This document shows, in pieces, positions 6,187-26,113 of a stretch of DNA of 64,000 bases; the stretch's first letter is position 1, and the number at the start of each line of letters is the position of its first letter. The notes beneath the pieces are model-generated. The model was given only the letters and a program-made list of their open reading frames with translations, was not told where the DNA came from and did not search any database. The position numbers were made by a program, and so were the translations under genes. This DNA is from Escherichia coli 042 (lineage in GTDB: Bacteria > Pseudomonadota > Gammaproteobacteria > Enterobacterales > Enterobacteriaceae), in assembly GCF_000027125.1 (NCBI RefSeq), contig NC_017626.1. One strand, written 5' to 3'.

Positions 6187-7656
6187 ATGAATACAACAAC
6201 ACCCATGGGGATGCTGCAGCAACCTCGCCCATTTTTCATGATCTTTTTTGTCGAGTTATGGGAGCGATTCGGCTACTACGGCGTGCAGGGCGTACTGGCG
6301 GTTTTCTTCGTTAAGCAGCTTGGATTCTCGCAAGAACAGGCTTTTGTCACTTTTGGTGCTTTTGCTGCGCTGGTCTATGGCCTCATTTCCATTGGCGGCT
6401 ATGTCGGCGACCACCTGCTGGGGACCAAACGCACCATTGTTCTCGGAGCACTTGTGCTGGCGATTGGCTACTTCATGACCGGCATGTCGCTACTTAAGCC
6501 TGACCTGATTTTCATCGCCCTGGGGACTATCGCTGTCGGTAACGGCCTGTTTAAAGCTAACCCAGCCAGCTTGCTTTCGAAGTGCTATCCACCGAAAGAT
6601 CCGCGGCTTGATGGCGCATTCACCCTGTTCTATATGTCGATCAACATCGGCTCGTTGATAGCGTTATCGCTGGCCCCTGTGATCGCTGATAGATTCGGCT
6701 ATTCAGTCACCTACAACCTGTGCGGTGCGGGATTAATTATCGCGCTATTGGTTTACATCGCCTGTCGCGGAATGGTGAAAGACATTGGTTCTGACCCCGA
6801 CTTCCGGCCGATGAGCTTCAGCAAACTGTTGTACGTGTTACTTGGCAGCGTGGTGATGATCTTCGTCTGTGCATGGCTGATGCACAACGTAGAAGTCGCC
6901 AATCTGGTGCTGATTGTTCTCTCCATCGTCGTCACCATCATTTTCTTTCGTCAGGCATTCAAGCTGGATAAAACCGGGCGCAATAAAATGTTTGTCGCCT
7001 TTGTCCTGATGCTCGAAGCGGTGGTGTTTTACATTCTCTACGCCCAGATGCCAACGTCACTGAACTTCTTTGCCATCAACAACGTGCATCATGAAATTCT
7101 CGGCTTTTCCATCAACCCGGTCAGCTTCCAGGCGCTTAACCCTTTCTGGGTGGTACTCGCCAGTCCAATACTGGCAGGCATTTACACGCATCTGGGTAAC
7201 AAAGGCAAAGACCTCTCGATGCCGATGAAATTTACTCTCGGCATGTTTATGTGCTCGCTGGGCTTTCTTACAGCCGCCGCTGCGGGAATGTGGTTTGCTG
7301 ATGCACAAGGACTGACATCGCCGTGGTTTATTGTGCTGGTTTACTTATTCCAGAGCCTGGGTGAACTGTTTATTAGCGCCCTTGGCCTGGCGATGATTGC
7401 TGCCCTGGTGCCGCAGCATTTGATGGGCTTTATTCTCGGGATGTGGTTCCTGACGCAGGCTGCCGCGTTCTTGCTGGGCGGCTATGTGGCAACATTTACC
7501 GCAGTACCAGACAACATTACCGATCCGCTTGAGACGTTGCCCGTCTATACCAACGTGTTTGGTAAGATTGGCCTGGTTACGCTGGGCGTTGCGGTGGTGA
7601 TGCTGCTGATGGTGCCGTGGCTGAAACGAATGATTGCGACGCCCGAAAGCCATTAA
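6187..7656 (+). CDS. dtpB: Proton-dependent di/tripeptide permease DtpB (POT family, 489 aa)
   Basis: POT/PTR2 N-terminal region [22 protein letters not shown]; about 12-14 TM segments. Confidence 0.9.
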
Positions 7657-12982: not shown

Positions 12983-13013
12983 AAGGGCAAAGAGTGGTGT
13001 GCTCTTTGCCCTT
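12983..13013 (+). terminator. Hairpin after gor (candidate terminator)
   Basis: Inverted repeat aagggcaaagag / ctctttgccctt directly after the gor stop; no strong T-run. Confidence 0.45.
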
Positions 13014-13029
13014 AGTTACGTTTCCGCTA

Positions 13030-13113
13030 TCAGTTCAGAAGCTGAAGCAGAAAGCGGATCAGTTCCAGCAGCGCAATTAACGCCCCAAGAACGATGATTG
13101 CTTTATCAATCAC
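13030..13113 (-). CDS. dinQ: DinQ type I toxin peptide (27 aa, GTG start)
   Basis: Reverse-strand translation gives VIDKAIIVLGALIALLELIRFLLQLLN*, matching DinQ from memory; GGAG 8 nt upstream; missed by the ORF track because of its size. Confidence 0.75.
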   Translation of the reverse strand: MIDKAIIVLGALIALLELIRFLLQLLN

Positions 13114-13306
13114 CCGTTTTCTCCATGCGATGGAGTGAGAATGCATCCGCTTACTCATCCACTGCCTGTCACGGCGCATGTCTCATTGTTAGATAAGAAC
13201 TCTCTCACTCCGGCCAGAGCATCAGTTAACGGCACCACCCGTACTTCTGACCAGGACTTTGAAAGCGTTTATGCGCATTACCAGAGTGAAAATGCCTCAG
13301 AGCTAA

Positions 13307-13322
13307 CTGGATAATCATACAG
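13307..13322. promoter_or_regulatory. Candidate LexA box (CTGG-N8-ACAG) in the dinQ upstream region
   Basis: ctggataatcatacag resembles the CTGT-N8-ACAG SOS box; dinQ is damage-inducible. Confidence 0.45.
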
Positions 13323-13384
13323 TACATGCAGGTTATAAAACCAGCACGTCCTTGCAATAGTTTCAGTATGGTATTAGCATTGAT

Positions 13385-13470
13385 GCGTTAGATGATGGCA
13401 TTCTCACTCCAGCCAGAGCCACCAACTCAGGGCTGAAGAGTAAAAAAACCGACGCAAAGTCGGTTTTTTT
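13385..13470 (+). ncRNA. agrA: agrA-like small RNA (approximate ends)
   Basis: First full copy of the repeat ctctcactccagccagagccaccaactcagggctg ending in the terminator aaaaaaaccgacgcaaagtcggttttttt; the 5' end is a guess. Confidence 0.45.
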
Positions 13471-13616
13471 ACATCCGGATTCGGACAAGGCTTAATATGA
13501 CGATGACCCAGTGAAAGTATATAAATCGTCACTGCGATATATACCGAAGTGCTCCCTCCGCCAGCTGAAGAAACCGCTAATTCTTGCAATGTTAGCCACT
13601 GGCTAATAGTATTGAA

Positions 13617-13701
13617 CCGTTAGATAAGAGCTCTCTCACTCCAGCCAGAGCCACCAACTCAGGGCTGGAAAGTAAAAAACCGACGCAAAGTCGGTTTTTT
13701 T
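13617..13701 (+). ncRNA. agrB: agrB-like antisense small RNA, antitoxin for dinQ (approximate ends)
   Basis: Second copy of the same repeat and terminator (13674-13701); complementary to the partial repeat at 13190-13250 that lies inside the dinQ transcript. Confidence 0.45.
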
Positions 13702-13853
13702 ACGTCCTGATTCAGACCTCCTTTCAAATGAATACCCAACGCTTAATTCACACCTATTACCTTCCTCTGCACATACACATTCGTTAAACCATATATGTTT
13801 TTGACTTATCCGCTTCGAAGAGAGACACTACCTGCAACAATCAGGAGCGCAAT

Positions 13854-14207
13854 ATGTCATTTCTCTTACCCATCCAACTGTTCAAAATTCTTGCTGATGA
13901 GACCCGTCTGGGCATCGTTTTACTGCTAAGCGAGCTGGGAGAGTTATGTGTCTGCGATCTCTGTACTGCCCTCGATCAGTCGCAGCCCAAGATATCCCGC
14001 CACCTGGCGCTTCTTCGTGAAAGCGGGCTATTGCTGGATCGCAAGCAGGGTAAGTGGGTTCATTACCGCTTATCGCCGCATATTCCAGCATGGGCAGCGA
14101 AAATTATTGAGCAAACAAGATTAAGCCAACTGGACGACGTGCAGGCTATCGCCCGTAAGCTGGCCGCAGCCAACTGCTCTGCAGACGGTAAAGCAAGCTG
14201 CAGTTAA
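13854..14207 (+). CDS. arsR: Arsenical resistance operon repressor ArsR (117 aa)
   Basis: ArsR/SmtB HTH with the As(III)-binding ELCVCDLC motif. Confidence 0.9.
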   Translation: MSFLLPIQLFKILADETRLGIVLLLSELGELCVCDLCTALDQSQPKISRHLALLRESGLLLDRKQGKWVHYRLSPHIPAWAAKIIEQTRLSQLDDVQAIARKLAAANCSADGKASCS

Positions 14208-14254
14208 AAAATTTGCCTGGATATATATGATTTTCCGAATGTGAGGTGTCGAAG

Positions 14255-14617
14255 ATGAAGACGTTAACGGTGTTTGATCCGGCGATGTGTTGCAGTACCG
14301 GCGTCTGTGGTTCTGATGTTGATCAGGTGCTGGTCGATTTTTCCGCAGATGTGCAATGGCTGAAAAGCCGCGGTGTTCAGGTCGAACGTTACAATCTCGC
14401 GCAGCAACCGATGAGTTTCGTGCAAAACGAAAAAGCGAAAGCGTTTCTTGAGGCTTCCGGGGCGGAAGGATTGCCCTTGATCTTACTGGGAGGCGAAACC
14501 GTGATGGCGGGCCGTTATCCGAAACGCGCCGAGCTAGCCCGCTGGTTTGGGATCCCGCTGGAGAAGGTGGGGCTGGCACCAACACACTGCTGTGGCGGAA
14601 AAACCGACTGTTGTTGA
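14255..14617 (+). CDS. arsD: Arsenic metallochaperone / secondary regulator ArsD (120 aa)
   Basis: MKTLTVFDPAMCCSTGVCG with Cys12-Cys13-Cys18 and a C-terminal cysteine-rich tail; ATG at 14255 preceded by gaggtg. Confidence 0.85.
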   Translation: MKTLTVFDPAMCCSTGVCGSDVDQVLVDFSADVQWLKSRGVQVERYNLAQQPMSFVQNEKAKAFLEASGAEGLPLILLGGETVMAGRYPKRAELARWFGIPLEKVGLAPTHCCGGKTDCC

Positions 14618-14634
14618 GCCGGTCAGGGGGACAT

Positions 14635-16386
14635 ATGAAATTCTTACAGAATATCCCGCCTTATCTGTTTTTTACCGGTAAGGGAGGTGTAGGTAAAACG
14701 TCAATTTCCTGCGCAACTGCTATCCATCTGGCGGAACAGGGAAAACGGGTTCTGCTTGTCAGCACCGACCCCGCGTCGAATGTCGGTCAGGTATTTAATC
14801 AAACTATTGGTAACGCTATTACTCCTGTGACAGCGGTTCCCGATTTGTCAGCGCTGGAAATTGACCCTCAGCAAGCCGCTGAACAGTATCGGGCCAGAAT
14901 CGTTGACCCTATCAAAGGACTTCTCCCTGAGGAGGTTGTAAATAGTATACGCGAACAACTTTCGGGAGCATGTACGACAGAGATCGCGGCGTTCGATGAG
15001 TTCACCGGTTTACTGACCGATGCCTCTCTGCTGGCCCGCTTTGATCACATCATTTTTGATACCGCGCCAACGGGCCATACCATACGACTTCTGCAGCTCC
15101 CCGGTGCCTGGAGCAGTTTTATTGAAAGTAATCCCGATGGTGCCTCCTGTCTTGGCCCGATGGCTGGGCTGGAAAAACAGCGTGAGCAGTACGCTGATGC
15201 GGTAGAAGCATTATCCGATCCTGAGCGTACCCGCCTGGTGCTGGTTGCACGCCTGCAAAAATCAACATTGCAGGAAGTCGCTCGCACTCATGAAGAACTG
15301 GCAGCGATTGGTCTTAAAAATCAGTATCTGGTGATCAACGGCGTATTGCCTGAGTCCGGGCAGCAAAATGACCCACTAGCAATGGCAATAGTTCAGCGTG
15401 AGCAGGAAGCCCTGGTAAATTTACCCGCCGGTTTATCGACCATTCCAGCAGATACCCTCTTTCTTCAACCGGTGAACATGGTTGGCGTGCCTGCATTAAA
15501 AGGTCTTTTTAATACCCGTTTCGAGCCTGCCCCACTCTCTGGCCAGGTGCGCCAGCAATTCTCTGAAAACATGTCATTCTCTGAGTTAGTGAATGATATT
15601 GCCCGCAGTGAACACGGTCTGATCATGCTGATGGGAAAAGGCGGCGTGGGGAAAACCACAATGGCCGCAGCTATCGCCGTCAGGCTGGCAGATATGGGAT
15701 TCGATGTGCATCTTACAACCTCCGATCCTGCTGCCCACATTAACACTACCCTAAACGGCACACTTAACAACCTACAGGTCAGCAGGATCAATCCGCAGGA
15801 AGAGACCGAGCGCTATCGCCAGCATGTCCTTGAGACAAAGGGAAAAGATCTCGATGAAGCGGGGAAACGACTGCTGGAAGAGGATTTACGCTCTCCCTGC
15901 ACCGAAGAGATTGCTGTATTTCAGGCGTTCTCGCGCGTGATCCGTGAGGCGGGTAAACGTTTTGTGGTGATGGATACCGCACCAACCGGTCACACGCTGT
16001 TACTGCTGGATGCCACCGGGGCTTATCACCGTGAAATTGCGAAAAAAATGGGCGAAAAAGGTCACTTTACTACGCCAATGATGCAACTTCAGGATCCGCA
16101 ACGCACCAAAGTGCTGCTGGTTACGCTGCCTGAAACCACACCCGTACTGGAAGCGGCTAATTTGCAGGCCGATCTTAAACGCGCAGGGATTCATCCCTGG
16201 GGCTGGATAATCAATAACTGCCTTTCTATTGCGGAAACTCGTTCGTCGCTACTGTGTCAGCGAGCAACGCAGGAACGACCACAAATTGAGGCGGTGATGG
16301 CCCGACATGCTAAGCGTGTAGCGCTGGTCCCTCTATTCGCACAAGAACCTACGGGTATCGAAAAACTCAGAAAGCTGGCAAGTTAA
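14635..16386 (+). CDS. arsA: Arsenite-stimulated ATPase ArsA (583 aa)
   Basis: Two homologous halves each with a P-loop (GKGGVGKTS, GKGGVGKTT) and DTAPTGHT signature. Confidence 0.9.
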   Translation: MKFLQNIPPYLFFTGKGGVGKTSISCATAIHLAEQGKRVLLVSTDPASNVGQVFNQTIGNAITPVTAVPDLSALEIDPQQAAEQYRARIVDPIKGLLPEEVVNSIREQLSGACTTEIAAFDEFTGLLTDASLLARFDHIIFDTAPTGHTIRLLQLPGAWSSFIESNPDGASCLGPMAGLEKQREQYADAVEALSDPERTRLVLVARLQKSTLQEVARTHEELAAIGLKNQYLVINGVLPESGQQNDPLAMAIVQREQEALVNLPAGLSTIPADTLFLQPVNMVGVPALKGLFNTRFEPAPLSGQVRQQFSENMSFSELVNDIARSEHGLIMLMGKGGVGKTTMAAAIAVRLADMGFDVHLTTSDPAAHINTTLNGTLNNLQVSRINPQEETERYRQHVLETKGKDLDEAGKRLLEEDLRSPCTEEIAVFQAFSRVIREAGKRFVVMDTAPTGHTLLLLDATGAYHREIAKKMGEKGHFTTPMMQLQDPQRTKVLLVTLPETTPVLEAANLQADLKRAGIHPWGWIINNCLSIAETRSSLLCQRATQERPQIEAVMARHAKRVALVPLFAQEPTGIEKLRKLAS

Positions 16387-16428
16387 TTTTTTATACAGGG
16401 CGACCATGTCGCCCTGTCAGGAGGGTGT

Positions 16429-17718
16429 ATGTTACTGGCAGGCGCTATTTTTGTCCTGACCATCGTATTGGTTATCTGGCAGCCGAAAGGTTTAGGCATC
16501 GGCTGGAGTGCAACGCTCGGCGCGGTACTGGCGTTGCTTACGGGCGTGGTTCATCCGGGTGATATTCCGGTGGTGTGGAATATCGTCTGGAACGCGACGG
16601 CGGCGTTTATTGCCGTCATTATCATCAGCCTGCTGCTGGATGAGTCCGGCTTTTTTGAATGGGCGGCGCTGCACGTCTCACGCTGGGGCAATGGACGCGG
16701 TCGCTTGCTGTTCACCTGGATTGTCCTGCTCGGTGCCGCCGTTGCAGCTCTGTTTGCCAATGATGGCGCGGCGCTGATTTTAACGCCAATTGTCATCGCC
16801 ATGCTGCTGGCTTTAGGATTCAGTAAAGGCACTACGCTTGCGTTTGTGATGGCGGCCGGGTTCATTGCCGATACCGCCAGCCTGCCGCTTATTGTCTCCA
16901 ACCTGGTGAATATCGTTTCCGCAGATTTCTTTGGCCTCGGCTTTCGCGAATACGCATCGGTGATGGTGCCGGTGGATATCGCCGCAATTGTTGCCACGCT
17001 GGTGATGTTGCATCTTTATTTCCGCAAAGATATTCCGCAGAACTACGACATGGCGCTGCTGAAATCGCCCGCAGAAGCGATTAAAGATCCTGCTACGTTC
17101 AAAACTGGCTGGTTTGTTTTACTGTTTCTGCTGGTGGGATTTTTCGTCCTGGAACCGCTCGGCATTCCGGTAAGCGCCATTGCGGCAGTGGGCGCGCTGA
17201 TATTATTTGCCGTCGCTAAACGCGGTCATGCAATTAATACGGGTAAAGTCCTGCGCGGTGCGCCCTGGCAGATTGTCATCTTCTCGCTCGGCATGTATCT
17301 GGTGGTTTATGGCCTGCGCAATGCCGGACTAACGGAATATCTTTCTGGCGTACTCAACGTGCTGGCGGAAAACGGCCTGTGGGCCGCGACGCTCGGCACC
17401 GGATTCCTCACCGCCTTCCTCTCTTCTATTATGAACAATATGCCGACGGTACTGGTTGGCGCGTTGTCCATTGATGGCAGCACGGCATCTGGCGTTATCA
17501 AAGAAGCGATGGTTTATGCCAACGTGATTGGCTGCGATTTGGGACCGAAAATTACCCCAATTGGTAGCCTGGCTACGCTACTCTGGCTGCACGTACTTTC
17601 GCAGAAGAATATGACTATCAGCTGGGGATATTACTTCCGTACAGGAATTATCATGACCCTGCCGGTGCTTTTTGTGACGCTGGCTGCGCTGGCGCTACGC
17701 CTCTCTTTCACTTTGTAA
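16429..17718 (+). CDS. arsB: Arsenite efflux pump ArsB (429 aa)
   Basis: 12-TM membrane protein of ArsB length, immediately after arsA. Confidence 0.9.
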
Positions 17719-17730
17719 TGAGATATTGAT

Positions 17731-18156
17731 ATGAGCAACATTACCATTTATCACAACCCGGCCTGCGGTACGTCGCGTAATACGCTGGAGATGATCCGCA
17801 ACAGCGGTACAGAACCGACCATTATCTATTATCTGGAAACACCGCCAACGCGCGATGAGCTGGTCAAACTCATTGCCGATATGGGGATTTCCGTACGCGC
17901 GCTGTTGCGTAAAAACGTCGAGCCGTATGAGGAACTGGGCCTTGCAGAAGATAAATTTACTGACGATCGGCTAATCGACTTTATGCTTCAGCACCCGATT
18001 CTGATTAATCGCCCGATTGTGGTGACGCCGCTGGGAACTCGCCTGTGCCGCCCTTCAGAAGTGGTGCTGGAAATTCTGCCAGATGCGCAACAACGCGCGT
18101 TCACCAAGGAAGATGGCGAGAAAGTGGTTGATGAAGCGGGTAAACGCCTGAAATAA
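17731..18156 (+). CDS. arsC: Arsenate reductase ArsC (glutaredoxin-coupled, 141 aa)
   Basis: Catalytic Cys12 context HNPACGTSRN; length 141 aa. Confidence 0.9.
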   Translation: MSNITIYHNPACGTSRNTLEMIRNSGTEPTIIYYLETPPTRDELVKLIADMGISVRALLRKNVEPYEELGLAEDKFTDDRLIDFMLQHPILINRPIVVTPLGTRLCRPSEVVLEILPDAQQRAFTKEDGEKVVDEAGKRLK

Positions 18157-18201
18157 AGCGGCGATATCCACTGCCGATAGTTGGTAAAGTGCGCTTCGTT
18201 T

Positions 18202-18296
18202 ATGTCGGATGCGACGCTAACGCGTCTTATCCGACCTACAAAACCGTGCAAATTCAATATATGGCATGAAATCTGTAGCGCGTAGCGCATCAGGCA
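18202..18296. repeat. REP-like palindromic units downstream of arsC
   Basis: atgtcggatgcgacgctaacgcgtcttatccgacctac and gtagcgcgtagcgcatcaggc resemble the REP consensus. Confidence 0.5.
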
Positions 18297-18586
18297 ATTT
18301 TGCTATTTACGCAGCACTCCTCGCGTAAGAATTCAATTATCGCTTCCAGCATTGCGTATTGCGAAACACACATCAGCGTCCGACTCTCACGGTTTTGTTT
18401 GACCAGCCCTACCGATACCAGTGCTGAAATATGGTGACTGAGTGTAGAGCCGGGTATCCCAAGCTGCTTTTGCAACTCACCGACCGGCAAACCTTGTTCC
18501 CCCGCTTTGACCAGGTGTTTGAATATGAACAAACGGGTCGGGTGACCTAGCTCTTTCAGCGCTTTAGCAACTTCTTCCAACTGCAT
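18290..18586 (-). CDS. ArsR/SmtB-family metalloregulator (98 aa), divergent from the downstream permease
   Basis: Winged-helix sequence LGHPTRLFIFKHLVKAGEQGLPVGELQKQLGIPGSTLSHHISALVSVGLV; cysteines near the C-terminus (MCVSQ, ECC). Confidence 0.75.
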   Translation of the reverse strand: MQLEEVAKALKELGHPTRLFIFKHLVKAGEQGLPVGELQKQLGIPGSTLSHHISALVSVGLVKQNRESRTLMCVSQYAMLEAIIEFLREECCVNSKIA

Positions 18587-18693
18587 ATGACACCCCCTTT
18601 GTCTGGTTGATATTTCGATAATACCAGAAATATCTTGATCTGAATTTCATTTCGATTATTCTGGAAATATGGATTCATTCAATGAGGTTACGT

Positions 18694-19695
18694 ATGAGTA
18701 GTTGGCTTGCGATGCTGCAAGATGCCGCAGAGATGTTTGTGTTTCTCGCCGTCGAGCTTTCTTTGCTGTTTATAGTGATTAGTGCCGGTGTCAGCCTGAT
18801 AAGACAAAAGGTGCCAGACCATAAAATCCAGCAGATGATGGGGGCCAGAAAAGGGAGAGGCTATCTCCTGGCGGCTCTGTTGGGAGCCGTTACCCCGTTC
18901 TGTAGTTGCTCGACAATCCCCATGTTACGTGGATTGTTGTCAGCGAAAGCCGGGTTCGGTCCGACCCTCACTTTTTTATTTGTTTCACCGTTACTTAATC
19001 CCATTATCGTCGGACTAATGTGGGTAACCTTTGGCTGGAAAGTTACCTTGTTGTACGCGATTATCGCCGCCGGCATCTCCGTACTTGCCAGTATTATCCT
19101 CGATTCTCTGGGGTTTGAACGTCATATCATTGCCAGTAAAAGCTCATCAGCAAATTGTTGTGCTCCAGCCAAAACTTCGCCAGGGACGACATATACGCCC
19201 ATAAAAGTGAGTTGCTGTAGTCCAGCGGCTAAAGTCATTGAGAAACCCGCAGTTAACTGTTGCAGTACCAAAGCAGTGGCAAGTATTAATCCCATAAAAT
19301 TAGCCATCAAAGATGCATTGCAGCAGTTTAAAGACGTACTGCCATATCTTGTGTTAGGGGTATTACTAGGCTCTTTTATTTATGGCTTTATCCCCTCACA
19401 GTGGATTGCCGCTCATGCAGGGGCAGATAATCCCTTCGCCATCCCATTGAGCGCCGTTGTCGGAATTCCGCTGTATATCCGGGCAGAGGCGGTTATCCCT
19501 CTGGCATCTGTTCTGATGACAAAAGGAATGGGTCTGGGAGCATTAATGGCATTAATCATCGGCAGTGCCGGAGCAAGCCTGACGGAAGTGATATTACTTA
19601 AATCAATGTTCAGAATACCGATGATAGTTGCATTCCTGACGGTTATATTAGGTATGGCTATCTTGATGGGCTATTTGACTCAAATGCTATTTTAA
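18694..19695 (+). CDS. Permease with a cysteine-rich central loop (ArsP / DUF318-like, ~333 aa)
   Basis: TM helices including a TPFCSCS motif flank a hydrophilic loop with three CC pairs (ANCCAP, VSCCSP, VNCCST); start set at the second ATG, which has GAGG upstream. Confidence 0.7.
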   Translation: MSSWLAMLQDAAEMFVFLAVELSLLFIVISAGVSLIRQKVPDHKIQQMMGARKGRGYLLAALLGAVTPFCSCSTIPMLRGLLSAKAGFGPTLTFLFVSPLLNPIIVGLMWVTFGWKVTLLYAIIAAGISVLASIILDSLGFERHIIASKSSSANCCAPAKTSPGTTYTPIKVSCCSPAAKVIEKPAVNCCSTKAVASINPIKLAIKDALQQFKDVLPYLVLGVLLGSFIYGFIPSQWIAAHAGADNPFAIPLSAVVGIPLYIRAEAVIPLASVLMTKGMGLGALMALIIGSAGASLTEVILLKSMFRIPMIVAFLTVILGMAILMGYLTQMLF

Positions 19696-20275
19696 ATAGA
19701 TGCCAGCAGTAAACTATAAGGAGCATTGTGAGTGCCTTATCCTTCTGAGTAGAAAATCATAGATAGGATAATCCTTAAAAATCACAAATAACTTAACTAA
19801 TGCTTTGAGAATGATGACGGATCCGTCAGTAAGTCATCAATCGACAATCACCACGCAATCATGCTTCTCTGACATTTTATCGGAGAAGCAATGTCTCTTT
19901 GTTTCAGTGCTATCCCCCCTTTTAAAGGGCAGATTTCAGTCGCCAATACAACACATTTTTAAATACACTTTAACCTGGTTCATTATTACACATCTAAAAC
20001 ATCACAAAAATATCACTTCACACACTATCGGTGAACATCATAACTTTTTAAAATGAGCGCTTTTTGATAGTTGTTAACGTTTTCCTTTACGATACTATCA
20101 CTGCCCTTTTTTTATACACAAATATTACCGGGTGGAGATAAAAGGGAAATCAAAGGTAATTATATCAGGAAGAGATAACGCATTACATTTATTGTGTGTA
20201 GAAGAAAATCCATTCCTGTTCTAATTATCCAATTTAAACATCTTAGCATAAAACAAATGATGAATAAGGAATTTT

Positions 20276-21499
20276 ATGTCAATTGACTTTACCCCAGGTA
20301 TGATAAATACATATCACGGCGATATTTATAACCGCACAACAGATACCGACAATGTTAAAACACCAGACACACCGATGTGGCCTTGTGATAATCAGGAAGA
20401 ACAGCAGCCCATTAATTTTTCATTGTCTGAAGAAGGATATAACGCTGAACAATTTGATTTAGCGCAACAACAACTCCAACAAATTAATGCGTACCACACG
20501 AACACCACATATACAAATGCAGACTACTCAAAAATTGTGGCTCAAATTGTAAGTCTTATTAATAACATTGAAACGATAAGTTCGACACCACTTACGCAAC
20601 AGACACAATCAATACTTAATCAGATTAATAACATTAGATACGAAAAGAATAAAAATTCTGAATGTCGAATCATTGTTGTCGCTAATCCTAAACCCGACAA
20701 GGCAATCATAACTAAAATTAGCGTAGAAGAGGGAATACCAGTAAGATTCAGTGTCCAAACCATGTTTTCAGATACTAATTTTATTACTGAACAACGAGCT
20801 GACTTACCGACTAATATAAAAGATATTCAAAGCCTGTATCAAAAAATGACGAAGTTATATATTGAGCACAGTGAAAATAAAAACAGGATGAAAGTCTTTG
20901 CCGGAACCAACTTTATTGATTTCAATATGACAGGACAGAACCTGTCCGGGTTCGTTCTAACCTTGTCAAGGTTTTATTTCGAAGATCTACTTAATATAAA
21001 TTTCACTGACGCAAATTTAGGTGACGCTATTTTTTCACATAAAGAACACCCTACCCCAAAATTATATAAAGACGAACAATACCTTGACAAACAAATCGAA
21101 GGTTTATTTTCAACATTATTAACCATTAATGACAACTTTTTACGAGCAAAAGCGGAAATTGCTTCGACAATAATTAAATTCTTAGAGGCCAGGATAACCA
21201 ATATTTCATACAATGACATATTAAAATATCAGAAAGAATTCCAAAAGCAATGTTATAAGCAAGTTAAAGCCTTTACGACACTCTCCCGATACAATAAAAT
21301 TCAAACATGGGCAGAAATGTCTGAATATCAATTCGAAGTATTTCAATACGAGATGCTTAACCCCAAAAAAATGTCATACGCACCTTATTTAAAGAGATCG
21401 CTACCTGATGAAAAAACTATAAATTATGGGGTGGAAATAGAAACACCAACTGGCAAAAGAATTCGCTTATCAAATCATTACCAGAATATAATCCCATAA
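20276..21499 (+). CDS. yhiS: Pentapeptide-repeat protein, intact YhiS-like (407 aa)
   Basis: AT-rich ORF with about 10 consecutive period-5 repeats ([45 protein letters not shown]); position matches yhiS. Confidence 0.7.
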
Positions 21500-24130: not shown

Positions 24131-26113
24131 TTACCATTGATAACTCACGAAAATTTTTCCATTACGACCATCCTGTGGGATGCCTTGTGGCGACCAGTAC
24201 TCTTTGTCGAAAGCGTTACCCAACACCAAAGTAGTGGTCATACCTTTGAGCGCCTGCTGCCCTTGATAACTGACGTAGAAATCATTCACGCCATAGCCTG
24301 GTTGTTTGCTGTAACTGCTGCTGATATGTGTTGAGCGATCGGCAAACGTACCAACCCACCCAACAGAGAAGCCACTGTGAGCGATCGGAATATTCAGGGT
24401 GCTGGTAACGGTATCCGGGTTAATACTGGAGATATATTCGCCGGTATCGGTGTCTTTGCCGCGGGTACGGTTATAGGCCACATCAAGGCTAAACAGATCA
24501 GTGGTATATTTCGTCATCACATCCCAACCCCAGATTTTGGCGTTCGGGACGTTATACGACATAGTTGTCGCCGCCGCGAAATCGACGGTCGTGGAGATGT
24601 AATCCTTCGCTTTGGTATCAAAGTAGCTGGCTTTAAATTCCAGAGCATCATTGGACAACATCAGATCATCAAAACGCAGCCCAAAACCGTACTCCTGAGT
24701 TTCGTTAGTTTCCGGACGTAAGTTCGGGTTTGGCACCCAATAGTTGGTATAGAAGCGACCAATCGAGAAGTGCTTAGAATCGTTATACATTTCGCCCATC
24801 GTCGGGGCGCGGAATGCCTGGGCATATGAGCCAAATAACATCAGCCAGTTAGCCGGGTTGATAGTCATCCCCGCGCGAGATGACCATTTGTCGGCATCAA
24901 CATCTTTGTAGCCGTCGCTGCTACCGCGATAACTGTCATAGCGGGTTCCGCCAAGCAGGGTAATCGGCAGATCGCGTAAGGTGATCTCATCCTGTAGCCA
25001 GCCGGAGCTAAAATCGATTTTTGCTTGCGGGAAGCCCGTCGTCGCGCCGCCCGGATGTTGTTCCTGACGATAATACTCACCGCCATATGTCAGTAAGTGA
25101 GAAGCGAAACTGTCGGCAAATAGAGTGGAACGGTTCTCCAGTTTGGCTCCTTTTGTTATCTGTTCACGATACTCGCCGGAACTCCCCGTGTTTTGCGCAT
25201 TAATACGGACTTCCGACCAGTAAATTTTTGCATCTGCATTTAACCAGTCGTTGCCCTGCGGGGCGAGTTTATAAGAAAGCTGCGCATCGCGTTGAATTGT
25301 TGAACGATCAACCATCGGGTTGCTGCTATCAGAAGCTTCAACGGTCTGCGGATTTTTTGGTTCACGCGCGTCGTTGTTGTAGTAACGCACTAAACCGCTC
25401 AGAGACTGGGCTGAATCAATTTGCCAGGTCCCTTTCGCCAGCATGTTATTAATGGACTCGTCATTCGGCGCGGTTTCACCATTGCTCTGGCGTAAATCAC
25501 CCCGATCGCGACTGGACCAGGCCACAATACCATCCAGATTTTCAGTTCGCCCAAACGCGCTCGCGCCTAATCCCAGGCTATGGTCCCCCGTGCCGCCAGT
25601 ACCAAAGACACGAAAACCACTACTTTGTCCTTCCTGCAATAAATCTTTTGCATCGACCGTATCGTAGGAGATCACCCCACCCAGCGCGCCACTGCCATAC
25701 AGTAATGCTGAAGGTCCGCGAACAATCTCAACACGCTTGATCAGCGCCGGATCAAGAAAAGTACCATTCAGGTGTCCGGTATCCGTTCCCTGGCGAACAC
25801 CATCGACAAGAACCAGCACGCCGCGATGATCATAGCCACGCATATTTACATCCTGACCGTTGGTTCGTCCGGTACCATCAAGAGTAATTCCAGGAACATG
25901 ACGCAGCAGATCGGTGGCTGAAGTAGCCGTTTGATTTTCAGGAGCGGAAGTGTCGATGACGCTGACCATCATAGGCGCTTCGAAGGAACTACGGGCATTC
26001 CCCGTTGCCGTAACGGTCATGGTTTCAGTAGCAAAAGCAAACGTTGGCAAGGTGGCAGAAACAGCCAAAGCCAACAAACTCAAACGCAACGAGGTAAATT
26101 GCGGACGTGACAT
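24131..26113 (-). CDS. chuA: TonB-dependent outer membrane haem/haemoglobin receptor ChuA (660 aa)
   Basis: Signal peptide, TonB-box region, plug and beta-barrel, C-terminal aromatic residue. Confidence 0.9.
   Translation of the reverse strand: MSRPQFTSLRLSLLALAVSATLPTFAFATETMTVTATGNARSSFEAPMMVSVIDTSAPENQTATSATDLLRHVPGITLDGTGRTNGQDVNMRGYDHRGVLVLVDGVRQGTDTGHLNGTFLDPALIKRVEIVRGPSALLYGSGALGGVISYDTVDAKDLLQEGQSSGFRVFGTGGTGDHSLGLGASAFGRTENLDGIVAWSSRDRGDLRQSNGETAPNDESINNMLAKGTWQIDSAQSLSGLVRYYNNDAREPKNPQTVEASDSSNPMVDRSTIQRDAQLSYKLAPQGNDWLNADAKIYWSEVRINAQNTGSSGEYREQITKGAKLENRSTLFADSFASHLLTYGGEYYRQEQHPGGATTGFPQAKIDFSSGWLQDEITLRDLPITLLGGTRYDSYRGSSDGYKDVDADKWSSRAGMTINPANWLMLFGSYAQAFRAPTMGEMYNDSKHFSIGRFYTNYWVPNPNLRPETNETQEYGFGLRFDDLMLSNDALEFKASYFDTKAKDYISTTVDFAAATTMSYNVPNAKIWGWDVMTKYTTDLFSLDVAYNRTRGKDTDTGEYISSINPDTVTSTLNIPIAHSGFSVGWVGTFADRSTHISSSYSKQPGYGVNDFYVSYQGQQALKGMTTTLVLGNAFDKEYWSPQGIPQDGRNGKIFVSYQW

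Follow-up and report, generated by a model that had tools for sequence, protein, structure and literature searches.

A five-gene arsRDABC operon at the native chromosomal ars locus of Escherichia coli has a mosaic arsR gene

Introduction

The arsRDABC operon of R773 is the reference system for five-gene arsenic resistance operons and is borne on a plasmid. It is established that ArsB can be energized in two ways and that ArsD acts as a chaperone (reviewed in PMC6205960), and arsRDABC operons in general are stated in reviews to give higher resistance (PMC6205960). The chromosome of E. coli K-12 MG1655 has a three-gene form, arsR-arsB-arsC (b3501-b3503), in the gor-dinQ-agrAB...yhiS-slp locus, and has neither arsD nor arsA there. 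A chromosomal arsRDABC operon has been described by Sütterlin et al. (2018, Antimicrob Agents Chemother, PMC5923176). That operon belongs to the ST69 complex and ST1836, in phylogroup D, and lies between gor and slp, approximately 5 kb upstream of heme-uptake genes.

The native ars locus is thus known to be polymorphic in E. coli, with arsC only in phylogroup B2 and arsRBC in most other strains; arsRDABC is found in approximately 3% of complete genomes. Here, we analyze the ars operon in a stretch of 64,000 nucleotides from E. coli 042 (contig NC_017626.1), referred to as the window, and compare it to the plasmid, K-12, and ST69-complex operons.

Results

An intact arsRDABC operon lies on the + strand at positions 13854-18156 of the window, and five open reading frames on that strand fall exactly within this interval, in agreement with an earlier note on this DNA that had called a five-gene chromosomal form. 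All five genes are intact. They are arsR (13854-14207; 117 aa), for an As(III)-responsive repressor; arsD (14255-14617; 120 aa), for an arsenite metallochaperone and weak repressor; arsA (14635-16386; 583 aa), for an arsenite-stimulated ATPase with two homologous halves; arsB (16429-17718; 429 aa), for an arsenite/antimonite efflux membrane protein; and arsC (17731-18156; 141 aa), for a glutaredoxin-dependent arsenate reductase. The start of arsA was set at the ATG at 14635, in agreement with R773 ArsA and RefSeq; the mechanically called reading frame began at a TTG at 14611. The genes are tightly spaced on one strand downstream of one putative promoter, with intergenic spacers of 47, 17, 42, and 12 nt in the order R-D-A-B-C, which is the arrangement of R773-type arsRDABC operons. 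None of the four spacers contained a terminator-like hairpin in a scan for such structures.

Protein families were assigned using the curated NCBIfam cut-offs with a cross-check against Pfam. Every protein of the operon scores above its cut-off along its entire length, and the Pfam results agree. ArsR, a member of the ArsR/SmtB family with a helix-turn-helix domain, matches PRK10141 (219 bits; cut-off 97) over residues 1-117 and keeps Cys32, Cys34, and Cys37 of the inducer site (ELCVCDLC); RefSeq names the window-type protein only 'transcriptional regulator'. ArsD matches chaperon_ArsD (NF033727; 132 bits; cut-off 90) and Pfam ArsD (PF06953; 158 bits). It is 88% identical to R773 ArsD (PDB 3MWH) over 109 aa, and it retains Cys12, Cys13, and Cys18 of the As(III) site as well as the C-terminal pairs Cys112/113 and Cys119/120. 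Residues 8-571 of ArsA align with positions 2-564 of the 565 in TIGR04291 (939 bits; cut-off 650), and the protein is 84.5% identical, ungapped over 582 aa, to R773 ArsA (PDB 1F48). The two P-loops that had been noticed earlier are both present, one per half, as GKGGVGKT at residues 15-22 and 334-341. The DTAPTGH signal-transduction motifs are at residues 142-148 and 447-453, and the metalloid-binding Cys113, Cys172, and Cys422 (R773 numbering) are kept in the alignment with 1F48. ArsB matches PRK15445 over residues 1-427 (729 bits; cut-off 457) and Pfam ArsB (PF02040; 529 bits). ArsC matches PRK10026 (/TIGR00014) with 305 bits (cut-off 242), is 93.6% identical in amino acid sequence to R773 ArsC (PDB 1I9D), and has the catalytic Cys12 and the Arg60/Arg94/Arg107 triad. 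The window operon shares with R773 both the gene order, as had been proposed, and the functional residues.

The operon occupies the native ars locus of the E. coli chromosome. In a 100% identical RefSeq E. coli chromosome, the order of genes is gor-dinQ-agrAB-ars-(arsR-like/permease)-yhiS-slp-dctR-chuS/chuA. K-12 has the same locus and promoter region, and its arsB and arsC are 96% identical in nucleotide sequence to those of the window. It differs in having no arsD or arsA, as the earlier note had stated and as the MG1655 reference sequence between gor and slp confirms; in the 3' end of arsR and the adjoining spacer, which are only 60-68% identical; and in having no arsR-like/permease pair 3' of arsC, which the window-type locus has.

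The ars promoter/operator region (13700-13853, + strand) lies upstream of arsR. An alignment of positions 13700-13860 to K-12 has 7 differences in 161 columns, and the final 71 columns, which run into the start of arsR and include TTGACT at 13801-13806, match K-12 exactly. Because of this near-identity we call the promoter K-12-type; a consensus promoter scan did not flag it. In contrast, the upstream region of a Klebsiella plasmid ars operon is largely unrelated to that of the window. A GT-to-AC change at 13788-13789 was considered as a marker of the five-gene form and rejected: UTME-7, which has five genes, has GT, and strain O17_K12a, which has three, has AA. The dinucleotide differs from strain to strain, independently of the five-gene form.

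A gene order shared with R773 and with many IncF/IncH plasmid operons could indicate that a whole R773-type arsRDABC operon was recently captured from a plasmid, by a transposon, an insertion sequence, or plasmid integration. The identities of the individual genes favor K-12 over plasmids. The window arsB is 96.4% identical to K-12 in nucleotide sequence (98.8% in amino acid sequence) and 98.7% identical to that of O17_K12a at the nucleotide level, compared to 82.7% for a Klebsiella plasmid arsB; arsC is 96.2% identical to K-12. For the two genes together, the ranges are 96-99% to K-12 and O17_K12a and 83-86% to plasmid copies, and on these nucleotide identities arsB and arsC are E. coli-native alleles. 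When the promoter and the 5' part of arsR are included, K-12 shares 93-100% identity with the window and the plasmid copy about 64-86%. A search of 72,556 plasmid records, with E. coli chromosomes misfiled as plasmids set aside, gave a best match of approximately 81.5% identity. For arsD and arsA, identity to plasmid copies is no more than about 80%, even for the best ones, and present-day plasmid operons of the R773 type are likewise about 80% identical to the window operon in nucleotide sequence. The GC content of the operon (0.51-0.53) is not distinct from that of its surroundings, and, unlike the plasmid-borne R773 operon, the window operon is at its native chromosomal locus with no flanking repeats or insertion sequences found. 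We consider capture of the whole operon from a plasmid to be effectively refuted.

The five-gene and three-gene alleles are distinguished by one segment, positions 14095-16428 on the + strand, comprising the 3' end of arsR, the arsR-arsD spacer, arsD, arsA, and the arsA-arsB spacer. In a sliding comparison with K-12 and O17_K12a, identity is 84-98% up to about 14095 and 58-70% beyond it; it is back at 98-100% once arsB begins (16429). The breakpoint splits arsR: over its 5' 232 bp, identity to the K-12 and O17_K12a genes is 93-96%, whereas its last ~110 bp are 60-68% identical to the K-12-type allele. Strain O17_K12a has arsRBC, yet its flanks are 99-100% identical to those of the window. The arsR-arsB spacer of K-12 matches the window in two parts: its beginning aligns with the arsR-arsD spacer, and its later part with the end of the arsA-arsB spacer.

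Because the last ~110 bp of arsR are divergent, the two alleles differ by allelic (recombinational) replacement and not by a clean insertion or deletion, as judged from these alignments. A repeat search over positions 13000-19900 found neither repeats, direct or inverted, nor insertion sequences beside the arsDA segment, and insertion of arsDA by a mobile element was rejected on this basis. The only real repeats within that interval are those of dinQ/agrA/agrB, upstream of ars. The mosaic arsR of the five-gene allele is a modest new point beyond the published work; the divergent 3' end is not mentioned in the parts of PMC5923176 considered here.

We found arsDA at ≥95% identity in 187 of 5,426 complete E. 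coli genomes, and each of the 187 copies was within a place covering ≥80% of a 6.8-kb query for the locus. Three of these genomes (ECA64, UTME-7, and GPEC1337) were inspected, and all three have the five-gene operon at the same gor-slp locus. The window operon is 99-100% identical to the operons of 177 complete E. coli chromosomes, and the divergence of arsDA between E. coli strains is up to 1.1%. Like the window operon, the published ST69-complex/ST1836 operon has its five genes on the chromosome between gor and slp, and chu/hem genes follow a few kb further on; we detected no difference between the two. The window contains no MLST loci, and its tie to phylogroup D comes from chuA (phylogroup B2/D/E/F) and the published description. 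These comparisons give us high confidence that the operon is the already described, lineage-specific five-gene allele of the native ars locus, associated with the ST69 complex of phylogroup D, and not a captured plasmid operon. The novelty that the earlier note implied for a chromosomal arsRDABC operon does not stand, since the allele was published in PMC5923176.

Discussion

Two histories could account for the replacement. In the first, an arsRBC ancestor gained the 3' end of arsR, arsD, and arsA from an unsampled five-gene donor, with crossovers near 14095 and at the start of arsB, and the product then spread to a few lineages. The sharp identity breakpoints, the near-identical flanks around arsRBC in O17_K12a, and the rarity of the five-gene form, reported only in one sub-lineage of phylogroup D and ST1836 (PMC5923176), are consistent with such a gain, and arsDA is regarded in reviews as a later-acquired unit (PMC6205960). 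No donor was found, however, among 100,044 species representatives, in which the best non-E. coli ArsA is 88% identical in amino acid sequence. The single 100% match to ArsA outside E. coli comes from a Collinsella MAG, on a contig of 2.7 kb that we take to be contamination from E. coli. Furthermore, in comparison with other Enterobacterales operons, arsD and arsA of the window stand apart just as much as the native arsB and arsC do, and the arsDA copies of different E. coli strains already differ to the extent given above. We put the chance of a gain at slightly below even.

In the second history, the operon of the E. coli lineage was originally arsRDABC, the window preserves this older state, and the K-12 arsRBC is derived, with arsDA lost and the 3' end of arsR foreign or highly diverged. 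Every segment of the window operon, including the 3' end of arsR, lies at roughly the same distance (77-86% identity in nucleotide sequence) from 27 other Enterobacterales five-gene operons, whereas the K-12 arsR 3' end and spacer have no blastn match to any of those 27. The best identity of this 3' end and spacer to a true plasmid is ≤73.7% for the K-12 version and 80.5% for the window version. The identity of arsB exceeds that of arsA by 0.041 in pairs that include the window, similar to the 0.059 in pairs of other operons whose arsB genes are 80-85% identical. In Citrobacter gillenii, too, the arsR-like/permease pair comes after an arsRDABC operon. The two-part match of the K-12 arsR-arsB spacer also counts toward retention, although this symmetric pattern would suit an insertion just as well. 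Divergence this near to saturation fits an unsampled donor and vertical descent alike. Within the flanks retrieved, neither gor nor rlmJ is near ars in any of the 27 Enterobacterales loci, a result that is uninformative on ancestry. Retention of an older operon is, in our judgment, not quite an even prospect. The fuller form of this history, in which the five-gene allele is the original E. coli state and recombination later carried the derived K-12 arsRBC into most of the species, is one we put forward tentatively and consider somewhat less likely than not.

The expression, ATPase activity, and phenotype of the operon can be predicted from the R773 paradigm. By analogy, ArsR would keep the K-12-type promoter repressed, and binding of As(III) or Sb(III) at the Cys32/34/37 site would lift the repression. 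ArsC would then convert arsenate to arsenite with glutaredoxin as the reductant, and ArsD, which is reported to be important at low As(III) (sub-micromolar to micromolar), would take up arsenite at Cys12/13/18 and pass it to ArsA. Docking of ArsA on ArsB would change ArsB from a carrier driven by the proton motive force into an ATP-driven ArsAB pump. ATP-driven arsenite efflux, which the earlier note took the five genes to imply, is a reasonable expectation for the window operon because ArsA and ArsD are intact with all the known functional residues.

The same note expected probably higher resistance, and this is not supported by the published isolate data: in Sütterlin et al. (2018, PMC5923176), the arsenite MICs of isolates with arsRDABC and isolates with arsRBC are not significantly different. 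Given these MICs, arsDA can be credited only with a putative practical contribution in this background. Both the polymorphism of the locus and the null MIC result are already in the literature, and we regard the finding as ordinary and its importance as small. The five-gene allele does provide a natural setting for studying the contribution of ArsD and ArsA in a wild strain. In addition, the mosaic arsR may explain why this allele is treated differently by PCR and annotation schemes that are keyed to the K-12 arsR.

An intact arsRDABC operon

An ORF scan of the window found exactly five plus-strand ORFs in succession at 13854-18156: arsR (13854-14207, 117 aa), arsD (14255-14617, 120 aa), arsA (14635-16386, 583 aa), arsB (16429-17718, 429 aa) and arsC (17731-18156, 141 aa), separated in order by 47, 17, 42 and 12 nt. 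The lengths of ArsD and ArsA are counted from ATG; the mechanical ORF starts are GTG at 14246 and TTG at 14611, respectively. For arsA, the ATG was chosen in agreement with R773 ArsA and the RefSeq annotation. All five products are full-length matches above the curated NCBIfam cut-offs (ArsR: PRK10141, 219 bits, cut-off 97; ArsD: NF033727, 132, cut-off 90; ArsA: TIGR04291, 939, cut-off 650; ArsB: PRK15445, 729, cut-off 457; ArsC: PRK10026, 305, cut-off 242), with consistent Pfam assignments. The operon coordinates and gene content in the earlier note were correct, as was its mention of two P-loops in ArsA (GKGGVGKT at residues 15-22 and 334-341).

Compared with R773, the complete set of residues known to be required for function is present in ArsA (DTAPTGH at 142-148 and 447-453; metalloid-site Cys113/172/422), ArsD (Cys12/13/18 and the C-terminal vicinal pairs), ArsR (Cys32/34/37, within ELCVCDLC) and ArsC (Cys12 and Arg60/94/107). 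No signs of pseudogenes were seen in the window's ars genes. Identity to the R773 proteins is 84.5% for ArsA (1F48; gap-free over 582 residues), 88% for ArsD (3MWH; over 109 residues) and 93.6% for ArsC (1I9D).

By analogy with R773, ArsR would hold the promoter repressed until it binds As(III) or Sb(III), ArsC would reduce arsenate, ArsD would hand arsenite to ArsA, and ArsA would turn the carrier ArsB, otherwise driven by membrane potential, into a pump powered by ATP. At the level of sequence, every structural prerequisite of this mechanism is supported in the window. A review (PMC6205960) describes the dual energy coupling and ArsD as a chaperone, and regards arsDA as a later acquisition that gives resistance to higher arsenic levels. 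The suggestion in the earlier note of probably higher resistance is at odds with the sole phenotypic measurements on this allele, in which arsenite MICs did not differ significantly from those of arsRBC isolates (Sütterlin et al. 2018, PMC5923176). Overall, its observation was confirmed and its interpretation is partly supported.

A published allele of the chromosomal ars locus

The chromosome of E. coli ECA64 (RefSeq) is 100% identical to window 13000-19800. Its gene order is dtpB, rsmJ, prlC, rlmJ, gorA, dinQ, arsR, arsD, arsA, arsB and arsC, followed by an ArsR/SmtB regulator, a permease, a yhiS-like gene, slp, dctR, chuS and chuA. K-12 MG1655 has gor, dinQ, agrA, agrB, arsR, arsB, arsC, yhiS and slp at the same position. 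The K-12 locus has neither arsD nor arsA, whose presence there would have refuted the earlier note; its statement that K-12 carries arsRBC is borne out.

A 6.8-kb locus query was at least 80% covered at one place in 187 of 5,426 complete E. coli genomes. In the same set, the arsDA segment alone was found at ≥95% identity in 187 records (177 at ≥99% and 10 at 95-99%); 76 further records had arsDA at only 60-90% identity, located on plasmids or elsewhere in chromosomes. The operon likewise lies at the gor-slp locus in UTME-7 (98.9%) and GPEC1337 (99.2%). PMC5923176 reports complete arsRDABC in two groups of phylogroup D, the ST69 complex (n = 7) and ST1836 (one isolate), arsC alone remaining between gor and slp in B2 strains, and heme-transport genes ~5 kb downstream of ars. 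Judged by its sequence, which includes no MLST locus, the window fits this description, including chuA (24131-26113). The operon is an intact, ordinary ars-locus allele of E. coli that has already been published (PMC5923176).

The alleles differ by a replaced segment

Sliding identity between the window and both K-12 and the arsRBC strain O17_K12a is 84-98% over the first two-thirds of arsR, falls abruptly to 58-70% between ~14095 and the last base of the arsR-arsD spacer, and is back at 98-100% from the first base of arsB. Therefore, what separates the two E. coli alleles is a replaced segment that takes in the 3' end of arsR, the spacer and both arsD and arsA; arsDA has not simply been inserted or deleted. 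The mosaic arsR is a small addition to the published picture of the allele. In K-12, the first part of the arsR-arsB spacer aligns with the arsR-arsD spacer of the window and the rest with the end of the window's arsA-arsB spacer, a pattern that fits either direction of change.

RefSeq/PGAP labels the arsR of the five-gene allele only 'transcriptional regulator' (window 13854-14207; 6855-7208 in comparison locus L001), and the K-12 type 'As(III)-sensing metalloregulatory transcriptional repressor ArsR'. The generic label is probably due to the divergent C-terminal third, and surveys by gene name could therefore miss arsR in five-gene strains.

Two AgrB-family sRNA genes lie upstream of arsR in the window (Rfam matches at 13388-13472 and 13620-13703), and the dinQ/agrA/agrB repeat region (13188-13717) contains a 33-nt core three times. 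O17_K12a, but not K-12, diverges sharply from the window at 13474-13570 (66-88% identity), which points to another small patch of recombination immediately before the ars operon.

Origin of the five-gene form

Capture of a plasmid operon into the chromosome was effectively ruled out by comparison gene by gene. The window's arsB is 96.4% identical in nucleotides to K-12 and 98.7% to O17_K12a, compared to 82.7% for a Klebsiella IncF plasmid operon; the values for arsC are 96.2%, 96.9% and 85.9%. For arsD and arsA, absent from K-12 and O17_K12a, identity to the Klebsiella operon is 79.6% and 80.4%. The best match among 72,556 plasmid records, with misfiled E. coli chromosomes set aside, was ~81.5%. 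Upstream (13700-13860), 7 of 161 columns differ from K-12 and the final 71 are identical, whereas the Klebsiella upstream region is mostly unrelated. A repeat search found no repeats or insertion sequences flanking arsDA, and GC content is unremarkable. Three PLSDB records of 4.8-4.9 Mb (NZ_CP141089.1, NZ_OL790696.1 and NZ_CP134663.1) are evidently E. coli chromosomes, and give spurious 'plasmid' matches of 92-100% identity to the chromosomal locus.

We compared the operon with 27 other Enterobacterales five-gene operons, obtained by scanning one genome of each species for ArsA. Each segment is about equally distant from these operons (nucleotide identity: arsR 5' part, 77-85%; arsR 3' end and spacer, 72-84%; arsD, 78-83%; arsA, 73-81%; arsB, 81-84%; arsC, 79-86%), and each of the four structural genes places the window as an outlier lineage. 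The K-12 arsR 3' end matched none of the 27 (blastn); its best identity on true plasmids was ≤73.7%, compared to 80.5% for the window version. The window's arsB-minus-arsA identity gap of 0.041 is similar to the 0.059 of other operon pairs whose arsB identity is 80-85%, as would be expected if arsDA had diverged vertically together with native arsB and arsC. At one Citrobacter gillenii locus, arsRDABC is directly followed by the same pair of ArsR-like regulator and permease genes as in the window (88% and 68% aa identity). These observations lean towards a long history of the five-gene form in the E. coli lineage. However, the allele is rare and phylogenetically restricted, O17_K12a carries arsRBC despite flanks that are 99-100% identical, the breakpoints are sharp, and the same numbers would be expected from a similarly diverged donor that has not been sampled. 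Later acquisition from such a donor is about as probable as an old five-gene form. The ArsA scan found no donor of arsDA; the closest non-E. coli ArsA was 88% identical, with one 'Collinsella' contig set aside. This 2.7-kb contig (L005; JAIJJM010000447.1, recorded as a Collinsella sp. MAG) matches the window at 100% identity from arsR (3') through arsD and arsA to arsB (5'), and we read it as E. coli sequence mis-binned in an actinobacterial MAG.

Genes downstream of arsC

Directly downstream of arsC is a divergently transcribed pair, an ArsR/SmtB regulator (18290-18586, minus strand, 98 aa) and a permease (18682-19695, plus strand, 337 aa; Pfam ArsP_1, 176 bits). K-12 lacks the pair and many arsRBC strains of E. 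coli have it. The permease scores too low for either the SO_0444 or the SaoE efflux family by the NCBIfam cut-offs; its sequence contains TPFCSCS and a loop in which three vicinal Cys-Cys pairs occur. Together, regulator and permease may form an ars-linked module for efflux of organoarsenicals or metals.

An intact yhiS-like ORF of 407 aa (20276-21499, plus strand), without a match in Pfam or NCBIfam, lies in an AT-rich region (GC 0.32-0.35). The gene is interrupted by IS5 in K-12 MG1655 and carries a frameshift according to the annotations of ECA64, O17_K12a and GPEC1337. The window copy has only 76% aa identity to that of UTME-7, so the gene is unusually variable.
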